This document shows, piece by piece, positions 2,556 to 62,409 of a stretch of 64,000 nt of DNA (position 1 is its first letter; the number at the start of each line of letters is the position of its first letter). A program made the position numbers and the translations under genes. The notes below the pieces were generated by a model. The model searched no databases. It worked only from the letters and a program-made list of their open reading frames with translations, and had not been told where the DNA came from. The stretch lies in the IMG/VR virus record IMGVR_UViG_3300034691_000069, one strand, 5' to 3'. Origin of the DNA: a virus. Lineage: Duplodnaviria; Heunggongvirae; Uroviricota; Caudoviricetes.

Positions 2556-2999
2556 TTATGATTGCAAATCAATCACAACAGAGCCAAAGTGAATTACTTT
2601 TGCTGGTGTGTGAACATAGGCTTCAAGTGTTTGATTACAACCTGTTTCAGCACGGCCTGATTGCTCAAGGTCTGAAAGAACCGAAAGTTGACGGATAAAT
2701 TCAAGAAACCGCTCCAGCTTATATTCTTTACCTTTCAACGGCGTGAAAGTAAGGTTGTTTATGGCGTTAAGGTAAACTTGACCAACAAAATTATTACCAA
2801 GAGGAAAAGCACCGCTGTAAGAATACTCACCATTGACAAAAAAATCCTCATCGGTATTGATTTCGATGAAAAGCTGTTTTACACCAAGATTTCCCTTTGC
2901 ATTCGTGATTTCCTGAATAAGCGGAAAAACCTCACGAATTACAGAGGGATCAGCATTATTGAGAACATTCAAAAGAACAGAAGCAGGTATTTTATTCAT
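2556..2999 (-). CDS. hypothetical protein
   Basis: ORF track. Confidence 0.5.
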   Translation of the reverse strand: MNKIPASVLLNVLNNADPSVIREVFPLIQEITNAKGNLGVKQLFIEINTDEDFFVNGEYSYSGAFPLGNNFVGQVYLNAINNLTFTPLKGKEYKLERFLEFIRQLSVLSDLEQSGRAETGCNQTLEAYVHTPAKVIHFGSVVIDLQS

Positions 3000-3146
3000 G
3001 AGATTATCTCGCTTGGTTTGAAGGTTGATTATAACACATCGGTGATTGAAAAGCTATATTTTGACAATAAAAAACCTGCATCGCTGCAGGTTTGGGGTTG
3101 TATTGCATGAATGAAACCATGCAATCACAAACAGTTGACTAAACAA

Positions 3147-31124: not shown

Positions 31125-32246
31125 TTACTCGGGGATAGGCACTTGTTTACGAGCAAACACCATGATAGCGGCTTGTTTGTAATCAATTTCATCACCCGAA
31201 AACTTGCTCATCAACACCGACAGAAGCAATGGAGCCACTTCTTTGGCTTTACGAGCGTAATCGCCACGTTCCAAACCTTTATGCTCATCGTAGAAGCTGT
31301 CAACCGTGCGAACAAGGTAATGGTAGCTTTTACGGGCGTAGTCTTCGACTTCATCCAAGCGAGCCAGAATTTCAGCCAGTGGGAAATTATCGCTGTGTGT
31401 CCGGTAGTGATACAACGAACGGATTTCATCCAGAATTTCATGAAGGGTTGCTTCATAAATAACCTGACGTTCCTTCGAACGATCCTGAATGTTGACCACT
31501 GCCGACATTTTCAGGTAAGGAATGGTCTTGACCTTATACATGTCAGGGCCGATTTCAATCACATAACCTTCGATATCGGGGTCATTCACGTTGATTTCAT
31601 TAACGGGAATACGCTTCACCAGATGGGCAGCAATGACCGGATATTCTGCGGCAAATTCTGCCGAACGAATGTCCACATAAGCCCCTGTGTTCATGTCGCG
31701 GGCTTTCAACACATGAACTTCGTAGGTAGTGTATTCGATGAAAACACGGTTTTTCGGCGTGGTCAGTTCCAAGTCAACCGAAACACCTGTGCGGGTCAGC
31801 CGTTCAACGTCTGCGTGCAATTCTGGACTGATAGACTGTTCAACAAGGCCGTAATCAGCAAACGTAGGCTTCTTTTTACTCTTGTAGTAAAGAGTATCAT
31901 TGATCGGAGAAATATAGCTGGTGAGCAACGAGCCATCGGGTTTCAGATAAGCATGGTCGGCTTCTTCTGGCTTCACCTTTTGCGTTTCAGGGGTTTCGCC
32001 CAAGGAAAAGAATTTCTGCATTGGCAATGCCACCAGCATTGGCTCAGAACCGCCCATATAGAACATGACACCACGGCAATCCTTAGCACCCGGAAGTTTG
32101 AATTCGGAATGCTTTGGAATGTCATAGTTGAAGACACGGTAAGTCCCGCCGTCTACCGCCGAGATTTCATCACGGTATTTGAAAGACCCCGGATTAGTCA
32201 CCAGCAGGTGCATCAGTTGGGCATACAGTTCTTGTTGATAAGTCAT
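31125..32246 (-). CDS. rnlA: RNA ligase 1 (T4 gp63/Rnl1 homolog); start taken at second Met (GGAG RBS)
   Basis: similarity to T4 Rnl1 including YR(V/I)F.Y...LP...CRG(V/I)MF, nucleotidyltransferase motif I KPDGSL and motif IV EGYVI; antisense 373-aa track ORF is a shadow. Confidence 0.8.
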   Translation of the reverse strand: MTYQQELYAQLMHLLVTNPGSFKYRDEISAVDGGTYRVFNYDIPKHSEFKLPGAKDCRGVMFYMGGSEPMLVALPMQKFFSLGETPETQKVKPEEADHAYLKPDGSLLTSYISPINDTLYYKSKKKPTFADYGLVEQSISPELHADVERLTRTGVSVDLELTTPKNRVFIEYTTYEVHVLKARDMNTGAYVDIRSAEFAAEYPVIAAHLVKRIPVNEINVNDPDIEGYVIEIGPDMYKVKTIPYLKMSAVVNIQDRSKERQVIYEATLHEILDEIRSLYHYRTHSDNFPLAEILARLDEVEDYARKSYHYLVRTVDSFYDEHKGLERGDYARKAKEVAPLLLSVLMSKFSGDEIDYKQAAIMVFARKQVPIPE

Positions 32247-32302
32247 GTGAATCTCCATGATTAAATTGTCTGAATCTATTATATCAAAAACTGATTTTTA
32301 AT

Positions 32303-33216: not shown

Positions 33217-34338
33217 TTAAACGGGAGCGGACAAGTCGCCAAGCTCAATTTGTTCCAACGACCAATCAACCAGATGGTTTTTAGAGTAGTGATACAGGTA
33301 GTCGTTTTTGTGACCACGAATTGCCCCCATAACAAAACCAAAGTGTTTGTGGCCTTTGAGTTGGATTGCTGCAGTTTTCACGTCAACACCTTGGAATGCA
33401 GCAGCAATATCATCAACCTCTTTCGACAACGCTTCAATCGAAGCTTTGATAGCGTCATTGATACGATAAATTTCACTCAAATCAGCCGTTGGCGAGTTTA
33501 GCGACAAATAAGCAATGTAATCATCAAGTTTTTCTTCGACCACCAAACGAGCAATATCACGTTCACGAACAAAGCTAACCGCATGATGGAGATTCATATA
33601 CCATTTGGTTTTGATTTTGATCATGTTACCGTTAACGAATTGAATAACATAGCCTTCAATCCCTTCAACCGTGTTCAGCGACTTCAAAAGGGAAGCCAAA
33701 TCAAATTCTTCACCAAACAGTGGCTTGTTAACAGGAATATCAAACAACAACGCCAGTTGGTCTTTTTCAGCAGGCATTAAGTAATCGCCTGTGATGTTGT
33801 GACGAACATGAAGCAATGTCATGTTGTCTTCGTCATAACGCAAAACGATACGATGCTTTGGCGAAGTGAATTCAAAAATTGGCGTCAGTTGGGCCTGAGA
33901 GCAATATTTGGTGAACTCGTAGTATTTCTGGTTACGAGAGACAAAGCCTTCTGCCGAAACAGCCACATCCGATTTGAAAGACTTCTTGGACTTAGCAAAG
34001 AATTCGCCTTTGAACAGACCTGTGGTAATCATGGAGCCATCCATTTTATCAAACCCGGCAACCATAGTGTTCCAATCCAAAACGGCTGGCTGGACTTCTG
34101 CACGCTCTGCCAAGTTGAAGAATTTGTGCAATGGACGCGACAGTATTTTACCGTTGTCGTCAAAGGTAATACCGCGAGCTTCCTTTTCAACCGGAGTGTT
34201 GAAAGAGTCACCGTTGCTGATGTTGTAGCAAACGATGTCGGCACCGTTATCCTGTTTGTTAACAGAAATATAGGCACGGTCTTTGATATGAGGAATCATA
34301 TCATCAAGGGTTTCAATACGGGGGAAGATGCTGGACAT
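33217..34338 (-). CDS. second Rnl1-family RNA ligase (paralog of rnlA, diverged)
   Basis: EARGITFDDNGKILSRPLHKFFNL (cf. T4 Rnl1 ECRGIMFEMDG...RPMEKFFNL), motif I KMDGSM, motif IV GIEGYVIQF...IKIKTKWY. Confidence 0.7.
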   Translation of the reverse strand: MSSIFPRIETLDDMIPHIKDRAYISVNKQDNGADIVCYNISNGDSFNTPVEKEARGITFDDNGKILSRPLHKFFNLAERAEVQPAVLDWNTMVAGFDKMDGSMITTGLFKGEFFAKSKKSFKSDVAVSAEGFVSRNQKYYEFTKYCSQAQLTPIFEFTSPKHRIVLRYDEDNMTLLHVRHNITGDYLMPAEKDQLALLFDIPVNKPLFGEEFDLASLLKSLNTVEGIEGYVIQFVNGNMIKIKTKWYMNLHHAVSFVRERDIARLVVEEKLDDYIAYLSLNSPTADLSEIYRINDAIKASIEALSKEVDDIAAAFQGVDVKTAAIQLKGHKHFGFVMGAIRGHKNDYLYHYSKNHLVDWSLEQIELGDLSAPV

Positions 34339-40201: not shown

Positions 40202-40387
40202 TTAATTAAAAAGACCAAACATGCCGCAAGAAGCAATCAAAAGAGCAATGACAAACAACCAGACCCCAAATTTTTCCTGAATGTACACAGCACCTTTCAG
40301 TGCGGACATGGTGTTCACACACACAGCCTTCTTGTCAGTGCCACCACATTTAACACATTTGCAACTAGCCATGATAACGACCTTCAC
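40202..40387 (-). CDS. small Cys-rich membrane peptide (61 aa)
   Basis: ORF track; CKCVKCGG + TM. Confidence 0.45.
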   Translation of the reverse strand: MKVVIMASCKCVKCGGTDKKAVCVNTMSALKGAVYIQEKFGVWLFVIALLIASCGMFGLFN

Positions 40388-40464
40388 TTGATGATTTCAG
40401 CTATTATAGCAAAGAAAGGCCAAGATAAAAAGGAGTTTTTTTGCAAAAATAAATCAAAAAACGC

Positions 40465-40500
40465 TTTTCAAAGTATTAAAATACTGGTATAATAGCCTCA
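40465..40500 (+). promoter_or_regulatory. plus-strand promoter TTTTCA-17-TATAAT ending in the shared GGTATAATAGCCTCAC 14-mer
   Basis: identical 14-mer to 15615-15628. Confidence 0.5.
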
Positions 40501-56870: not shown

Positions 56871-57063
56871 TATCGTATTCTCCTAATATTTAGTTGTTAA
56901 CAACACAATCTAGATTGCATTAGTTGCTTTAATTATAATGATATAAAGTATTAATAATTTACCACAGTGATGTAAAAAGTCAATAAATAATGAAAATGAT
57001 TATCATTACACAATGTAAAAAAGTAATAAAAAAACCACTCGAAAGTGGTCTTAGTGTATAAAG

Positions 57064-57133
57064 GCTGTATGATGGGATTCGAACCCACGACTACCGTTTT
57101 TCGACGGAGTTCTGCCGACTGAACTACAAACAG
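57064..57133 (-). tRNA. tRNA-like element with canonical acceptor/D/T arms but aberrant anticodon arm (3-4 bp stem, 6-8 nt loop UCGAAAAA); no encoded CCA
   Basis: minus-strand read CUGUUUG-UA-GUUC-AGUCGGCA-GAAC-...-GUGGG-UUCGAAU-CCCAU-CAUACAG; T-loop GGUUCGAAUCC perfect. Confidence 0.45.
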
Positions 57134-59813: not shown

Positions 59814-60080
59814 TTAGCTCGGATTATGATTGCTCAACCAGCTATTGATGTTGACGATGGCGGATTCGACGCTATCAAACTCTTTGATAATGTCGCTGTT
59901 ACCATTGCTACCGATAACCAAAACATGGTTCTGCTGAATCGGCTTATTATACCCGATAGTCGAGAACGAAATCAAGTGCCCACGGTAAATGAAGCTAGCA
60001 TTAGCCTCAACAAAACCGGTATTGTCACAAATGCTGTAGTGTTGACTGTTTTGAAAAGCGTCTTCTGATGTGCGGGGCAT
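59814..60080 (-). CDS. hypothetical protein (88 aa)
   Basis: ORF track. Confidence 0.45.
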   Translation of the reverse strand: MPRTSEDAFQNSQHYSICDNTGFVEANASFIYRGHLISFSTIGYNKPIQQNHVLVIGSNGNSDIIKEFDSVESAIVNINSWLSNHNPS

Positions 60081-60233
60081 TTTATTGTATCCTGTGTATT
60101 TTTAGTAGGTGTATCATATCAAAAAACAGATTTTATGTAAAGGTGTTTTTTATTTTTTCCTCGATATTAAAGAAAATAAATAAATATATATACTATAATA
60201 CTTGAAATATATTGTTAAAAATATTAAGATATG

Positions 60234-60241
60234 TATAAATA
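60234..60241 (+). promoter_or_regulatory. T4-type late promoter TATAAATA
   Basis: exact octamer 19 nt upstream of ATG of plus-strand gene 60261..61289 in a very AT-rich spacer. Confidence 0.5.
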
Positions 60242-60260
60242 ATAAAAACAAAAGATTAAC

Positions 60261-61289
60261 ATGAATATGACAAACAAGAAGGTAAAAGTATTATCAATGG
60301 CTTCACTTGCTCTTTTTTGCGGAATATCTTACGCAAAATACGAAGTAATAATGGGCACTGTCGAAATAAAATTCAAACAAGTTGAGTGGTTAGAAATTGC
60401 ACCTAAATCATTAGGTTTAGTTGATTTGCCAAAAGACGATCCATTATATAGATACGGTTGTACAAATTGGGCACCATTACCAGCAGATGAGTTGATCAAT
60501 ACAACCTACACTCAGACCGCAACAAACTGTAAGGGTATGAAATATGAAAGTTATATCAAGCAAGAAAAAAATGCTGTAACGGGTGAAATTCGTGATAAAG
60601 GTGTTGCTTATAACGATGAAGCATCGGGTAAAGAAATGAGCAACTTGACGAATACCAAAGAGGCAGTGGGAACGGCTACAAGTTATCTAATGATCATGAA
60701 TCCAATTGCAGGACAAAGTGGTATCTATGACATTACTGATGGTTTAGGTAATAAAGCTAAGGCTTATGTTGATATGAACACTGCAGGAGGTAATTGGATA
60801 TTGGTAGGTCGTTGGACACAATTACCGGCTGGCTCTACTAAACGTAACTTCCAAGATATCGCAATGAAAACGGGTAAAATACTTAGTTATTCAGATAATA
60901 CAACAGCGTATCCAGTAATACCAAGTGGTTCGGTAAATATAAGTTCTGCTATGATGGTAAAGAATGCTAACGCAACATGGACTAGTATGTTTGGTGCTTG
61001 GCAAACATTCAGCACCTTCAACAAAGGTCAAAACATTGGAGGTGGGTTCACAGTAAATACACCTATTGGGTCTAAAACACTTTACCCAGAAGCTGCTGGT
61101 TGGATAGGTTTAAGACCTACTGATATGACAGACACCTTTGGATTATGGCCTGTCGCGGGTGCTGGTGGGCCTTGTGGTGGTCAGGGTATAGCGGGTGGTA
61201 ACAGAATCTGTCCAAGCTTCTCTTATGCAACGGCTCCACATTTCGATGTGAGCAGCTTGAAAGAAATTTATGTGAAGTCAAAAAACTAA
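60261..61289 (+). CDS. secreted Cys-repeat family protein (N-terminal C.NWAP...YTQTATNC...EKNAVTGEIRD module) fused to a Gly-rich C-terminal domain
   Basis: signal peptide; module shared with 10188/51488/52252 genes; plus-strand moron with terminator at 61304-61330. Confidence 0.6.
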   Translation: MNMTNKKVKVLSMASLALFCGISYAKYEVIMGTVEIKFKQVEWLEIAPKSLGLVDLPKDDPLYRYGCTNWAPLPADELINTTYTQTATNCKGMKYESYIKQEKNAVTGEIRDKGVAYNDEASGKEMSNLTNTKEAVGTATSYLMIMNPIAGQSGIYDITDGLGNKAKAYVDMNTAGGNWILVGRWTQLPAGSTKRNFQDIAMKTGKILSYSDNTTAYPVIPSGSVNISSAMMVKNANATWTSMFGAWQTFSTFNKGQNIGGGFTVNTPIGSKTLYPEAAGWIGLRPTDMTDTFGLWPVAGAGGPCGGQGIAGGNRICPSFSYATAPHFDVSSLKEIYVKSKN

Positions 61290-61303: not shown

Positions 61304-61330
61304 AAAAAACCAGCCGAAGCTGGTTTTTTT
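61304..61330 (+). terminator. rho-independent terminator (aaaaaaccagcCGAAgctggttttttt), bidirectional-capable
   Basis: hairpin with CGAA loop, runs on both sides. Confidence 0.6.
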
Positions 61331-61342
61331 ACAACTGTTCTA

Positions 61343-61717
61343 TCATTCACCATCCGTAAACATAAATTCATATTTAGGGTGAATTTTGCTCAATTTAAAA
61401 CGAGTTTCATTGCGTTTACTGCAAACCCGAGGCGTCATTTCTTTGCCTTTATTGCGGAGTTTGTGACTAAAATTCAACCAACGATCTTTCTTTTCAGAAG
61501 CTGCAGTAATCATGGAGAGTTCATTGAGAAACGATTCCATTTCATCGGAAGTAATGCTACCAGACCGATCAATATCAATGACAACACCGGGTTGCGACAA
61601 CAATGAAGACAATGCCGACTTGTCTTCTAATTTTACAATTTCGATCAACTGCGTCATGTTGAATACTCCACTTTTTTGAATGTAAGTTAGTATGACACAA
61701 TCATTATCCAATGACAA
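61343..61717 (-). CDS. EF-hand calcium-binding-motif protein (likely starts at internal Met MTQLIEIV)
   Basis: canonical 12-residue EF loop DIDRSGSITSDE. Confidence 0.5.
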   Translation of the reverse strand: MSLDNDCVILTYIQKSGVFNMTQLIEIVKLEDKSALSSLLSQPGVVIDIDRSGSITSDEMESFLNELSMITAASEKKDRWLNFSHKLRNKGKEMTPRVCSKRNETRFKLSKIHPKYEFMFTDGE

Positions 61718-61957
61718 CGATTGTTAAAAATTTTTACCCCTCGACCTGATTCCGCAGGTGCGTTTAACTGGCGGGTCGCCAGAGCCATTTGTCTCAACAG
61801 AGTTACACAAGGCTTATTGTCCTTGTGACATATCATTGGGATTCGACACCCAACTCCCTTCACAATAGTCCTCGGCCAACGAGGTGGAATTCCGCCACCA
61901 CTGCGAAAAATTACTTCTCAATAATTTTTCGCAGAAGTGCTAAAATTCGTAGGTAGT

Positions 61958-62008
61958 ATAGCGTAAAAAACAACGTATGTAAAATAGCGTAAAAAACAAC
62001 GTATGTAA
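61958..62008. repeat. two direct repeats of about 24 bp (atagcgtaaaaaacaacgtatgtaaa) followed by inverted partner tacatacgt
   Basis: read directly from sequence; on the minus strand forms ACGUAUGUAGG...ACAUACGU hairpin + U-run (terminator of 62044..62409). Confidence 0.7.
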
Positions 62009-62043
62009 ACAAAAATTTGCCTACATACGTCACATATGAACGA

Positions 62044-62409
62044 TTAAACGACCAGAAAAGAATCCTGATCAACACGTTCAACCATTAATTCATCACGGGC
62101 CGACATTTCAACAATACGGCCATTTTTAAATTTAATAGCAATAGGTCGATCACTATCAAGACAACCTTGAAGTGATTGTGGCGTTGACAAAAAAGCCGTC
62201 ATACCTTCACTGTATTTGATGAAAGCCTCATTTTCACCATCATCTTCTTTATTGAAACAAAGGTAGGCTTCTTCAACGATGTCACCAAAAACAGATTTCG
62301 CACGCTGAGTGAGTTCTTCATTTGCAAACAAGTGACGAATAATTGCAGCCATTTCTGTAATCCTCTTAAATTGAGCCATAATTATAGCATCAATGAAAAC
62401 CAACCACAA
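62044..62409 (-). CDS. hypothetical protein
   Basis: ORF track. Confidence 0.5.
   Translation of the reverse strand: MWLVFIDAIIMAQFKRITEMAAIIRHLFANEELTQRAKSVFGDIVEEAYLCFNKEDDGENEAFIKYSEGMTAFLSTPQSLQGCLDSDRPIAIKFKNGRIVEMSARDELMVERVDQDSFLVV

Follow-up and report, generated by a model that had tools for sequence, protein, structure and literature searches.

The 64,000-nucleotide stretch of viral DNA studied here (IMG/VR record IMGVR_UViG_3300034691_000069; below, the window, meaning this whole stretch) contains a non-coding block at positions 61718-62043 that is very probably a gene in its own right, encoding a structured RNA that is stable, acts in trans, and belongs to a family absent from Rfam. 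The block makes up the entire gap between two minus-strand open reading frames (ORFs), 62044-62409 and 61343-61717 (likely ATG at 61657), and holds three minus-strand features: a terminator-like hairpin, a tandemly duplicated predicted promoter of the σ70 type, and the structured-RNA gene. An initial annotation of the block, made from the letters of the window, had named a structured non-coding RNA as one of several possibilities. This possibility is now supported by 40 homologues, by a 44-pair fold with covariation support, and by the lack of a conserved reading frame.

Homologues and covariation-supported fold of the RNA

Homologues were sought by sensitive blastn against phage genomes, by blastn against plasmids, and by motif scans of viral and metagenomic contigs, the results of which were filtered with nhmmer and a covariance model. 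The initial annotation had proposed a comparison with related phages; the core turned out to be kept in unrelated ones. Matches in phage genomes were confined to window positions 61727-61890, were 74-83% identical, and lay in unannotated intergenic DNA. They were found in the N4-like Pseudomonas putida phages Ebordelon and Holyagarpour, which have a virion RNA polymerase, in the Pseudomonas jumbo phages OBP and D6, and in a group of ~300-kb Klebsiella and 'Serratia' jumbo phages that includes LPKP23 and FBKp24. The genes that flank the RNA in these phages do not align with the flanks in the window. The family comprises 40 distinct sequences with covariance-model scores of 131-192 bits. The window carries a single copy (61902-61733, minus strand, 181 bits), and a further homologue is found in the Salmonella jumbo phage SA002 (168 bits). 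The only non-phage home found for the family is provided by Vibrio plasmids: a 925-kb plasmid of V. vulnificus and three ~0.9-Mb plasmids of V. parahaemolyticus. The closest relative, L038, is on a 677,834-bp metagenomic contig (Ga0308157_10000028) and is 88% identical over the RNA. The GC content of the RNA ranges from 44 to 65% across members. Horizontal transfer has carried the RNA into unrelated phages and megaplasmids.

Bacterial chromosomes yielded no member of the family: when 185,579 genomes of bacteria and archaea were scanned with a strict motif, 12 places came up, none of which was confirmed by the model, and blastn against 5,426 E. coli genomes gave no match. A loose motif scan, in which most of the matches listed were due to chance, still yielded at least six further distinct members (nine loci, four of them identically scored), and the family must therefore be larger than the sample described here.

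The fold was derived with RNAalifold and explicit pair counting, which gave seven nested helices, followed by an all-against-all covariation screen. The elements of the RNA in the window are listed below in RNA sense, so that coordinates descend.

61733-61902, minus strand: conserved core, the covariance-model match
61901-61934, minus strand: H1, 12-bp 5' hairpin; one compensatory change in comparison with L038 (CUGCG/CGCAG versus CUUCG/CGAAG)
61883-61899, minus strand: H2, T-arm 1, GGUGG-CGGAAUU-CCACC; compensatory changes in 5/5 pairs
61870-61882, minus strand: segment UCGUUGGCCGAGG, which holds the 5' strand of P3, GGCC (61877-61874); 4/4 P3 pairs covary, 97% paired
61862-61869, minus strand: P4, 2-bp mini-hairpin with a U-N-G-U loop; both pairs covary; tertiary pair with the H2 T-loop
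61855-61861, minus strand: joining strand GAAGGGA, near-invariant
61835-61854, minus strand: P5, T-arm 2, GUUGGG-UGUCGAAU-CCCAAU; 5/6 pairs covary; basal G.U invariant (40/40)
61828-61834, minus strand: joining strand GAUAUGU; UGAU and GU conserved
61806-61827, minus strand: P6 hairpin, loop CAAUAA; 8/8 pairs covary
61787-61805, minus strand: joining strand UAACUCUGUUGAGACAAAU, read as UAACUCU-GUU-GAGACAAAU; invariant columns, the most conserved stretch
61783-61786, minus strand: 3' strand of P3, GGCU; covaries with GGCC 61877-61874
61768-61782, minus strand: P7, 5-bp hairpin; stem 100% paired, three pairs covary
61762-61767, minus strand: joining strand UUAAAC; GUUAAA invariant or nearly so
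61743-61761, minus strand: P8 hairpin, loop CGGAAU; 6/6 pairs covary
61726-61742, minus strand: 3' tail GAGGGGUAAAAAUUUUU; GGGU 61739-61736 is the pseudoknot partner

The covariation screen revealed three long-range interactions, all of them absent from the model that had been used for aligning the sequences. The first is a 4-bp pseudoknot between the loop of P7 (GACCC 61777-61773 in the window) and the GGGGY of the 3' tail (GGGU 61739-61736), with compensatory changes in all four pairs; loop and tail combinations such as GGCCC/GGGGY, GACAC/AGUGU, and AGCUA/GUAGC are found. The second joins the 'C56-like' C of T-loop 1 to the G of the P4 loop (pair 11-38: CG in 32 members, AU in 3, GU in 3, GC in 2), and is canonical in 40/40 sequences; the P4 loop does for the H2 T-loop (family consensus GUUCRAUUC) what the D-loop does in tRNA. 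The third joins the C of T-loop 2 to a G of CUCU-GG-UGAGAC (pair 57-105: CG in 33, AU in 3, GU in 1). The P5 T-loop of the window itself has a 1-nt insertion, which leaves its C-G capping pair unclear there.

In the 40-sequence alignment, 96.1% of the cells of the full 44-pair model are canonical, versus 34-46% when partners are slid by one to three columns. Compensatory changes occur in 40 of the 44 pairs, and none of 500 shuffles attained any of the observed measures. At the same time, 54 of 169 consensus positions are at least 95% conserved despite a median pairwise identity of 69%. These near-invariant positions lie mostly in the joining strands (GAAGGGA, UGAU..GU, UAACUCU...GAGACAAA, GUUAAA). 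The invariant positions and the compensated pairs together show that selection acts on this fold, and that the element is not decaying. The initial annotation had also considered the relic of a mobile element or an intron; the element is intact, purifying and compensatory selection on it is strong, and neither exons nor a transposase accompany it, and this reading is abandoned.

The RNA is read from the minus strand, as follows from its G.U pairs and from its co-orientation with neighbouring tRNA genes. The pair at the base of P5 is G.U in 40/40 members and another is U.G in 37/40; the plus strand would give C.A. The minus-strand sequence of the block folds more stably than its shuffles (z = -5.35; plus strand, z = -4.0).

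Most of the hairpins drawn in the initial annotation hold up: each is present in the sequence, and ACCUG/CAGGU (P8), GGUGG/CCACC (H2), and TTGGG/CCCAA (P5) covary in homologues. The 12-bp stem, H1, is present too and shows one compensatory change in L038; it falls outside the covariation model. H1 is variable in the family, from absent (L034) to a 15-bp stem around ~95 nt, and is expanded in Ebordelon. The hairpin CCUCG-GCCAA-CGAGG has to be redrawn, since the GGCC of its supposed loop pairs instead with the distant GGCU, with all four pairs of P3 covarying. Both this local hairpin and a distal pairing of CCUCG with the CGAGG of the tail, which is the minimum-energy prediction, conflict with covarying pairs and were rejected. 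A GUC/GAC pairing was likewise discarded, as C75 pairs instead with G96 and the pair swaps to G:C or U:A. In P6, the C.A closure of the AAUA tetraloop becomes U.G in six members, and the closing pair C:G becomes G:C or U:A in newly added members.

Two further pairings are proposed. UC and GG on either side of GGCC may form a 2-bp clamp that would give P3 a pseudoknot topology, with a C:G to G:C swap in three members. The 61787-61805 strand probably includes a 3-bp CUC/GAG mini-hairpin, whose UGGU-type loop would cap the P5 T-loop; CUC and GAG are complementary in 40/40 members, without any variation.

The statement that the block has no ORF of 60 or more amino acids (aa) was accurate: the longest in 61718-62043 are 58, 56, and 55 aa. 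Across members, any given reading frame is open in at most 11 of 34 sequences, and member lengths differ by non-multiples of three. It is extremely improbable, then, that the element is a small protein-coding gene or a degenerate pair of tRNA pseudogenes. The SA002 record does have a 'hypothetical protein' CDS over the element, and two T-arms could descend from tRNAs; against this, no frame is conserved, ARAGORN and the Rfam tRNA model are negative, and the fold itself is under selection. The SA002 CDS in question (QKE54521.1; L124 3029-3148, that is, MN445183.1 176197-176316 of Salmonella phage vB_SalM_SA002; model match at 2962-3131) is probably a mis-annotation. In every other phage record examined the RNA is unannotated, so that the present data correct an annotation that was missing throughout and once called a protein.

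Predicted promoters, terminator-like hairpin and probable ends of the transcript

The initial annotation had described the block as GC-rich. This is true of the RNA core (61733-61902, 52% GC versus 37.9% for the entire window) and not of 61900-62099, which is AT-rich (33.5% GC). The latter part contains the following features.

61991-62033, minus strand: terminator-like hairpin of 17 pairs, counting G-T, with a T-run behind it, from a terminator scan; inverted repeat 62033-61996
61981-62009, minus strand: predicted promoter copy 1, TTTACA-17 nt-TATTTT, 9/12 consensus matches, in the first 26-nt repeat unit
61955-61983, minus strand: predicted promoter copy 2, TTTACA-17 nt-TATACT, 10/12 consensus matches, kept in L038
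61948-61973 and 61974-61999: direct repeats of 26 nt in tandem, with 88% identity and an exact stretch of 25 nt; the promoter unit duplicated

The direct repeats, initially given as 24 bp, and the inverted partner (61999-62030) that had been reported exist. Together they had been said to form terminator-like hairpins on the minus strand. In the sense of transcription the hairpin, which includes the inverted partner, sits upstream of the RNA; it lies 11 nt past the stop codon of ORF 62044-62409 and fits transcription termination for that ORF. An unrelated hairpin with a T-run occupies the same place in L038.

The repeats are best read as a duplication of the predicted promoter of the RNA, because each unit holds one promoter consensus and L038 has a single copy. 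The L038 copy has identical hexamers and spacing, and its distance to H1 is the same as in the window. Since the number of promoter-like sites across the region (5, versus 3.5 +/- 2.0 in shuffles) is not above chance, the case for a promoter is argued from position, orientation, and conservation. An additional promoter-like site, 61717-61689, lies ahead of the downstream ORF. From the position of copy 2, transcription is expected to start near 61948, and the A/U run of the 3' tail probably marks the 3' end of the RNA; A/U-rich tails of the YAAA-n-UUU type also precede the downstream tRNA in L008, L013, and OBP. The block had been placed inside a minus-strand operon. The flanking ORFs are indeed on the minus strand, but the block has terminator-like and promoter-like signals of its own, and it is probably a separate transcription unit, not an operon-internal spacer.

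The same repeats had been considered as iteron-like replication or packaging elements. Direct and inverted repeats are present and the region is intergenic, as would be expected of a replication origin, a packaging site, or an iteron array. However, each repeat unit is a promoter copy that matches the consensus, lies outside the conserved element, and is present once in the closest relative, L038. The conserved part shows strand-specific covariation of the RNA type, including G.U pairs, sits between tRNA genes elsewhere, and is spread over replicons with unrelated replication and packaging systems. A function of the block at the DNA level is therefore hardly credible.

Genomic contexts, relation to known RNAs and possible functions

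At least eight lineages have the RNA next to tRNA genes of the same strand, at distances of 1-36 nt; the window copy is not so placed. Individual arrangements are as follows.

L034: tRNAs on both sides, with gaps of 3 nt and 1 nt; H1 absent
D6 and L008: between tRNA-Leu(UAG) and tRNA-Ser(UGA)
OBP: 6 nt ahead of tRNA-Asn
L013: 6 nt ahead of tRNA-Tyr
L107: 25 nt past tRNA-Asn
L064: 36 nt past tRNA-Leu
L188: 3 nt ahead of a tRNA-like gene

In the Klebsiella jumbo phages and in SA002, the RNA is ~0.3-1 kb from a tRNA array, on the tRNA strand. The tight spacing to tRNAs and the lack of H1 in L034 define the minimal RNA as the 168-170-nt core. The tRNAs that accompany the RNA (in L002, L005, L009, L107, L232, and at Ebordelon 40268-40498) are repeatedly Asn(GUU), Asp(GUC), Gln(UUG), and Tyr(GUA), sometimes with Ser(GCU). 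Three of these, the tRNAs for Asn, Asp, and Tyr, fall in the queuosine-modified group with GUN anticodons. This recurrent set may be a coincidence or may hint at the tRNA pool that the phages defend.

ORFs downstream of the RNA form no homologous cluster and are 2 to >700 nt away, and in arrays the next gene is a tRNA. A riboswitch or another cis-regulatory leader was rejected as a candidate, as the downstream ORFs are unrelated, their distance is variable, and there is no expression platform. No protein neighbour within 7 kb is conserved across lineages; the lone cross-lineage match, between pentapeptide-repeat proteins, is probably a repeat artefact.

The RNA was compared to the 4227 models of Rfam 15, which include riboswitches, ribozymes, RNase P, 6S, GOLLD, ROOL, and YrlA, as the initial annotation had suggested. 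At the gathering threshold, the whole window matched three tRNAs only, all of them elsewhere. With the limit relaxed to E<=10, region 61600-62150 gave chance matches only, the best being STnc450 (21 bits versus a threshold of 37) on the promoter/H1 part, so that no family matched the element at either level. Nothing overlapped the element in seven other members. ARAGORN, run for tRNA and transfer-messenger RNA (tmRNA), found three tRNAs in the window, none in 61700-62050, and none at the element in the other members scanned. The Rfam tRNA model RF00005 had no match in 61600-62150 at E<=10 or at the element in the same seven members. A tmRNA was rejected, ARAGORN and the Rfam tmRNA models being negative. 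No description of this RNA was found in full-text searches of the literature. We regard the element as founding a new family of structured, probably stable, phage RNAs.

The initial annotation had remarked on a likeness to a tRNA T-arm with no full cloverleaf. Both parts of the remark were correct: there are two canonical T-arms, each with a covarying loop-loop pair, and the tRNA searches are negative. Both hairpins fit the T-arm consensus of a 5-6-bp stem and a G-UUCRAnY-C loop; in both, the T-loop C pairs with the G of a small GG-containing loop, as in G19:C56 of tRNA; and the RNA often sits inside tRNA arrays. Unlike tRNA, the RNA lacks an acceptor stem, an anticodon arm, and a CCA end, its T-arm precedes the D-like loop, and its 170 nt also form a pseudoknot and five other helices. 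The relation to tRNA is one of resemblance of modules, not of membership.

The closest known kind is that of phage structured RNAs tied to tRNA islands, namely T4 species 1/2 RNAs, GOLLD, and ROOL. T4 species 1/2 RNAs (rnaC and rnaD), which have been without explanation for fifty years, are also small stable RNAs; their annotation puts them on the tRNA strand where a phage tRNA cluster ends, and presumably, by analogy, they share a processing route with the RNA described here. They differ in having no detectable similarity to it in sequence or structure, and the T4 sequences lack the invariant motifs. Homology to rnaC and rnaD was rejected, as the family model had no match in T4 69000-75000 at E<=1. 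GOLLD and ROOL are phage and prophage RNAs of elaborate pseudoknotted folds and unknown function that are often found near tRNA islands (PMC12286853). Unlike the present RNA, they are 3-5 times larger (~580 to >800 nt) and form homo-oligomeric cages, and their models do not match it at the gathering threshold or at E<=10. To these enigmatic RNAs of phage tRNA islands our data add a compact, experimentally tractable member of ~170 nt. Its fold, with a 44-pair model, a pseudoknot, and two intramolecular mimics of the tRNA elbow, is unusually well determined, and it is carried by cultivable phages (OBP, D6, FBKp24, LPKP23, SA002, and the N4-like Ebordelon).

RNase P RNA and T-box leaders use T-loop modules within pseudoknotted or multi-junction RNAs tied to tRNA biology. 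They differ from the present RNA in size and in the order of elements, their models do not match it, and it has no regulated gene downstream as T-boxes have. Readings of the RNA as an RNase P RNA, a group I intron, or a permuted tRNA were dropped, no model supporting any of them.

The predicted signals suggest how the RNA could be made. At the end of the upstream ORF, transcription would be terminated by the hairpin and T-run. The two tandem σ70-type promoters would then drive a transcript of ~225 nt (~61948 to 61725) composed of the variable H1 and the 170-nt core. In the compact body of the core, P3 closes a multi-helix junction, the P7 loop forms a pseudoknot with the 3' tail, and each T-arm is capped by the G of a small UGGU loop, similar to the D-loop/T-loop contact in the tRNA elbow. 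H1 and the 3' pseudoknot may shield the ends of the primary transcript. Members within tRNA arrays have no promoter of their own, and tRNA-processing nucleases would make their ends, with the RNase P cut at the 5' end of the downstream tRNA generating the 3' end of the RNA. We infer that the RNA is expressed and made as a discrete stable molecule with defined ends, which acts in trans.

What the RNA acts upon is likely something universal in bacteria, because phages that infect Pseudomonas, Klebsiella, and Salmonella, as well as a Vibrio plasmid, all retain the invariant nucleotides, in RNAs whose GC content is 44-65%; the horizontal spread and the 54 near-invariant nucleotides argue for a function aimed at such a target. 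The mechanism that we tentatively favour is that of a tRNA-elbow mimic or decoy. Its two tRNA-like elbows and the invariant surface of its junction could be offered, during infection, to some conserved bacterial component whose usual substrate is tRNA, for instance the ribosome, RNase P, or an enzyme or defence system that targets tRNAs.

Several points weigh against this picture. The window copy, like those of the N4-like phages, of the Vibrio plasmid, and of many metagenomic contigs, lies among small unrelated ORFs and not beside tRNAs. The T-loops are capped intramolecularly, and both may have a purely architectural role, as T-loops have in riboswitches and in the RNA of RNase P. The analysis identified no protein partner, ligand, or target. 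The promoters, the transcription start, the 3' end, and the stability of the RNA are deduced from consensus sequences. As to the fold, the single-sequence minimum-energy structure differs from the one given by covariation, and CUC/GAG, GGAG/CUCU, and the UC/GG clamp are proposed pairings of invariant bases, which are beyond the reach of covariation.

The RNA may instead represent a new functional class, either a trans-acting aptamer ('RNA sponge') or a new ribozyme, in which a double-elbow scaffold would hold an invariant junction serving as the active or binding site. This is rather unlikely in our estimate; it fits the ligand-pocket-like conservation, the lack of a nearby protein partner, and the spread across unrelated phages and megaplasmids. 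An aptamer in particular would sequester a small molecule, such as an immune signalling nucleotide or a universal metabolite, in a pocket formed by the invariant junction, and high-level co-expression with tRNAs would supply it in stoichiometric amounts. The ~54 near-invariant positions do cluster in the joining strands of the pseudoknotted junction while stems drift, a pattern of conservation known from riboswitch aptamers. The great diversity of hosts and GC contents fits a universal ligand over a host-specific protein, and no protein neighbour is conserved within 7 kb. On the other hand, there is no expression platform or consistent downstream gene, no riboswitch model matches, and the data indicate no particular ligand. 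We know of no natural RNA sponge for signalling nucleotides, and consider an aptamer quite improbable.

A ribozyme, in which the invariant joining strands would form the active site, could process itself or act on tRNA precursors or host RNAs. The complexity and conservation of the RNA are on a par with those of small-to-medium ribozymes. There is also a loose resemblance to CR-IV/CR-V of RNase P (GAUGA..UGUC..GACAAAU-GGCU). The RNA is physically embedded in tRNA precursors, and the theta ribozymes offer a precedent for small ribozymes adjoining phage tRNAs (PMC10879173). However, the Rfam models of ribozymes and of RNase P give no match at E<=10, and the elements follow one another in an order unlike that in RNase P or group I introns. 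In the window the RNA has a predicted promoter of its own and no tRNA neighbour, and no conserved candidate for a cleavage site was identified. We regard a ribozyme as very improbable.

The RNA could also scaffold a ribonucleoprotein whose protein part is encoded, by phage or host, elsewhere in the genome, in the manner of Y RNA with Ro or 6S RNA with RNA polymerase. tRNA-like modules are known in bacterial Y-RNA-like RNAs (YrlA, an Rfam family), and the window encodes two T4 Rnl1-type RNA ligases, and hence RNA-repair functions are present on the replicon. YrlA (RF02553) resembles the present RNA in being non-coding and in having a tRNA-like module with a T-arm. The present RNA differs in having no Ro-binding closing stem, and the YrlA model does not match it; the weak match of RF02553 (E 0.47) in L008 is to the neighbouring tRNAs. 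No protein family recurs within 7 kb across lineages, and a scaffold role appears unlikely.

The replicon and other observations

The window most likely stems from a giant phage or phage-like megaplasmid that is novel. When 12-14 kb of it were compared by megablast to phages and plasmids there was no match, so that the replicon is not a sequenced isolate, and the 415-aa neighbour protein had no match in plasmids. Long ORFs are very few in the window, with only seven of at least 300 aa in 64 kb. It also encodes three tRNA or tRNA-like genes and an exonuclease of the RNase T family. The T4 Rnl1-type RNA ligases are paralogous and are encoded 1 kb apart (31125-32258 and 33217-34338, both on the minus strand; phrog_562 / PF09511), so tRNA-repair functions are duplicated on this replicon. 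The better Rnl1-like ligase is 41.7% identical to its top phage match, from the Ralstonia jumbo phage RsoM2USA.

L038 and L074 are the two copies closest to that of the window, with 88% identity and the same long H1. L074 is on the 1,539,155-bp contig Ga0247725_1000001, where the locus has 29% GC. The window and L038 have neighbouring genes in common; the window and L074 have the RNA alone in common. The L038 and L074 replicons may be megaphages, megaplasmids, or small genomes.

In the V. vulnificus FORC_036 plasmid (NZ_CP015514.1, ~158103-158290; L123 3989-4176), the RNA scores 146 bits and P6 is expanded by 33 nt. The other Vibrio carriers are NZ_CP097357.1, NZ_CP062152.1, and CP099927.1. 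These ~0.9-Mb 'plasmids' contain mostly hypothetical genes, and a type I-F CRISPR module without Cas1/2/3 lies 12 kb from the RNA.

Two unusual tRNA-like genes were observed. The one in the window (57063-57133, minus strand) is reported by ARAGORN as 'tRNA-???' with a two-base anticodon '(aa)'. It scores 44 bits with the Rfam tRNA model, has a 3-nt deletion in the anticodon stem-loop, and may be a pseudo-tRNA or a non-canonical tRNA. The other, in Klebsiella phage LPKP23 (PV112478.1; L002 3377-3479, minus strand), is unannotated and scores 34 bits with the Rfam tRNA model, above threshold. Its anticodon loop is enlarged by a 36-nt insertion, and it may be an intron-containing tRNA; its place is in the 1.1 kb of non-coding DNA that lead from the tRNA array to the RNA.

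Downstream of the RNA gene in the window, a perfect 11-bp inverted repeat at 61304-61329 (AAAAAACCAGC/GCTGGTTTTTT) separates the convergent ORFs 60261-61289 (plus strand) and 61343-61657 (minus strand), and looks like a bidirectional intrinsic terminator. ORF 60261-61289 (342 aa) is the lone plus-strand ORF in an otherwise minus-strand region. It is preceded by an extremely AT-rich spacer at 60080-60260 (18% GC over 60100-60299), and its N-terminus, judged by eye, presumably resembles a hydrophobic signal-peptide or lipoprotein leader.

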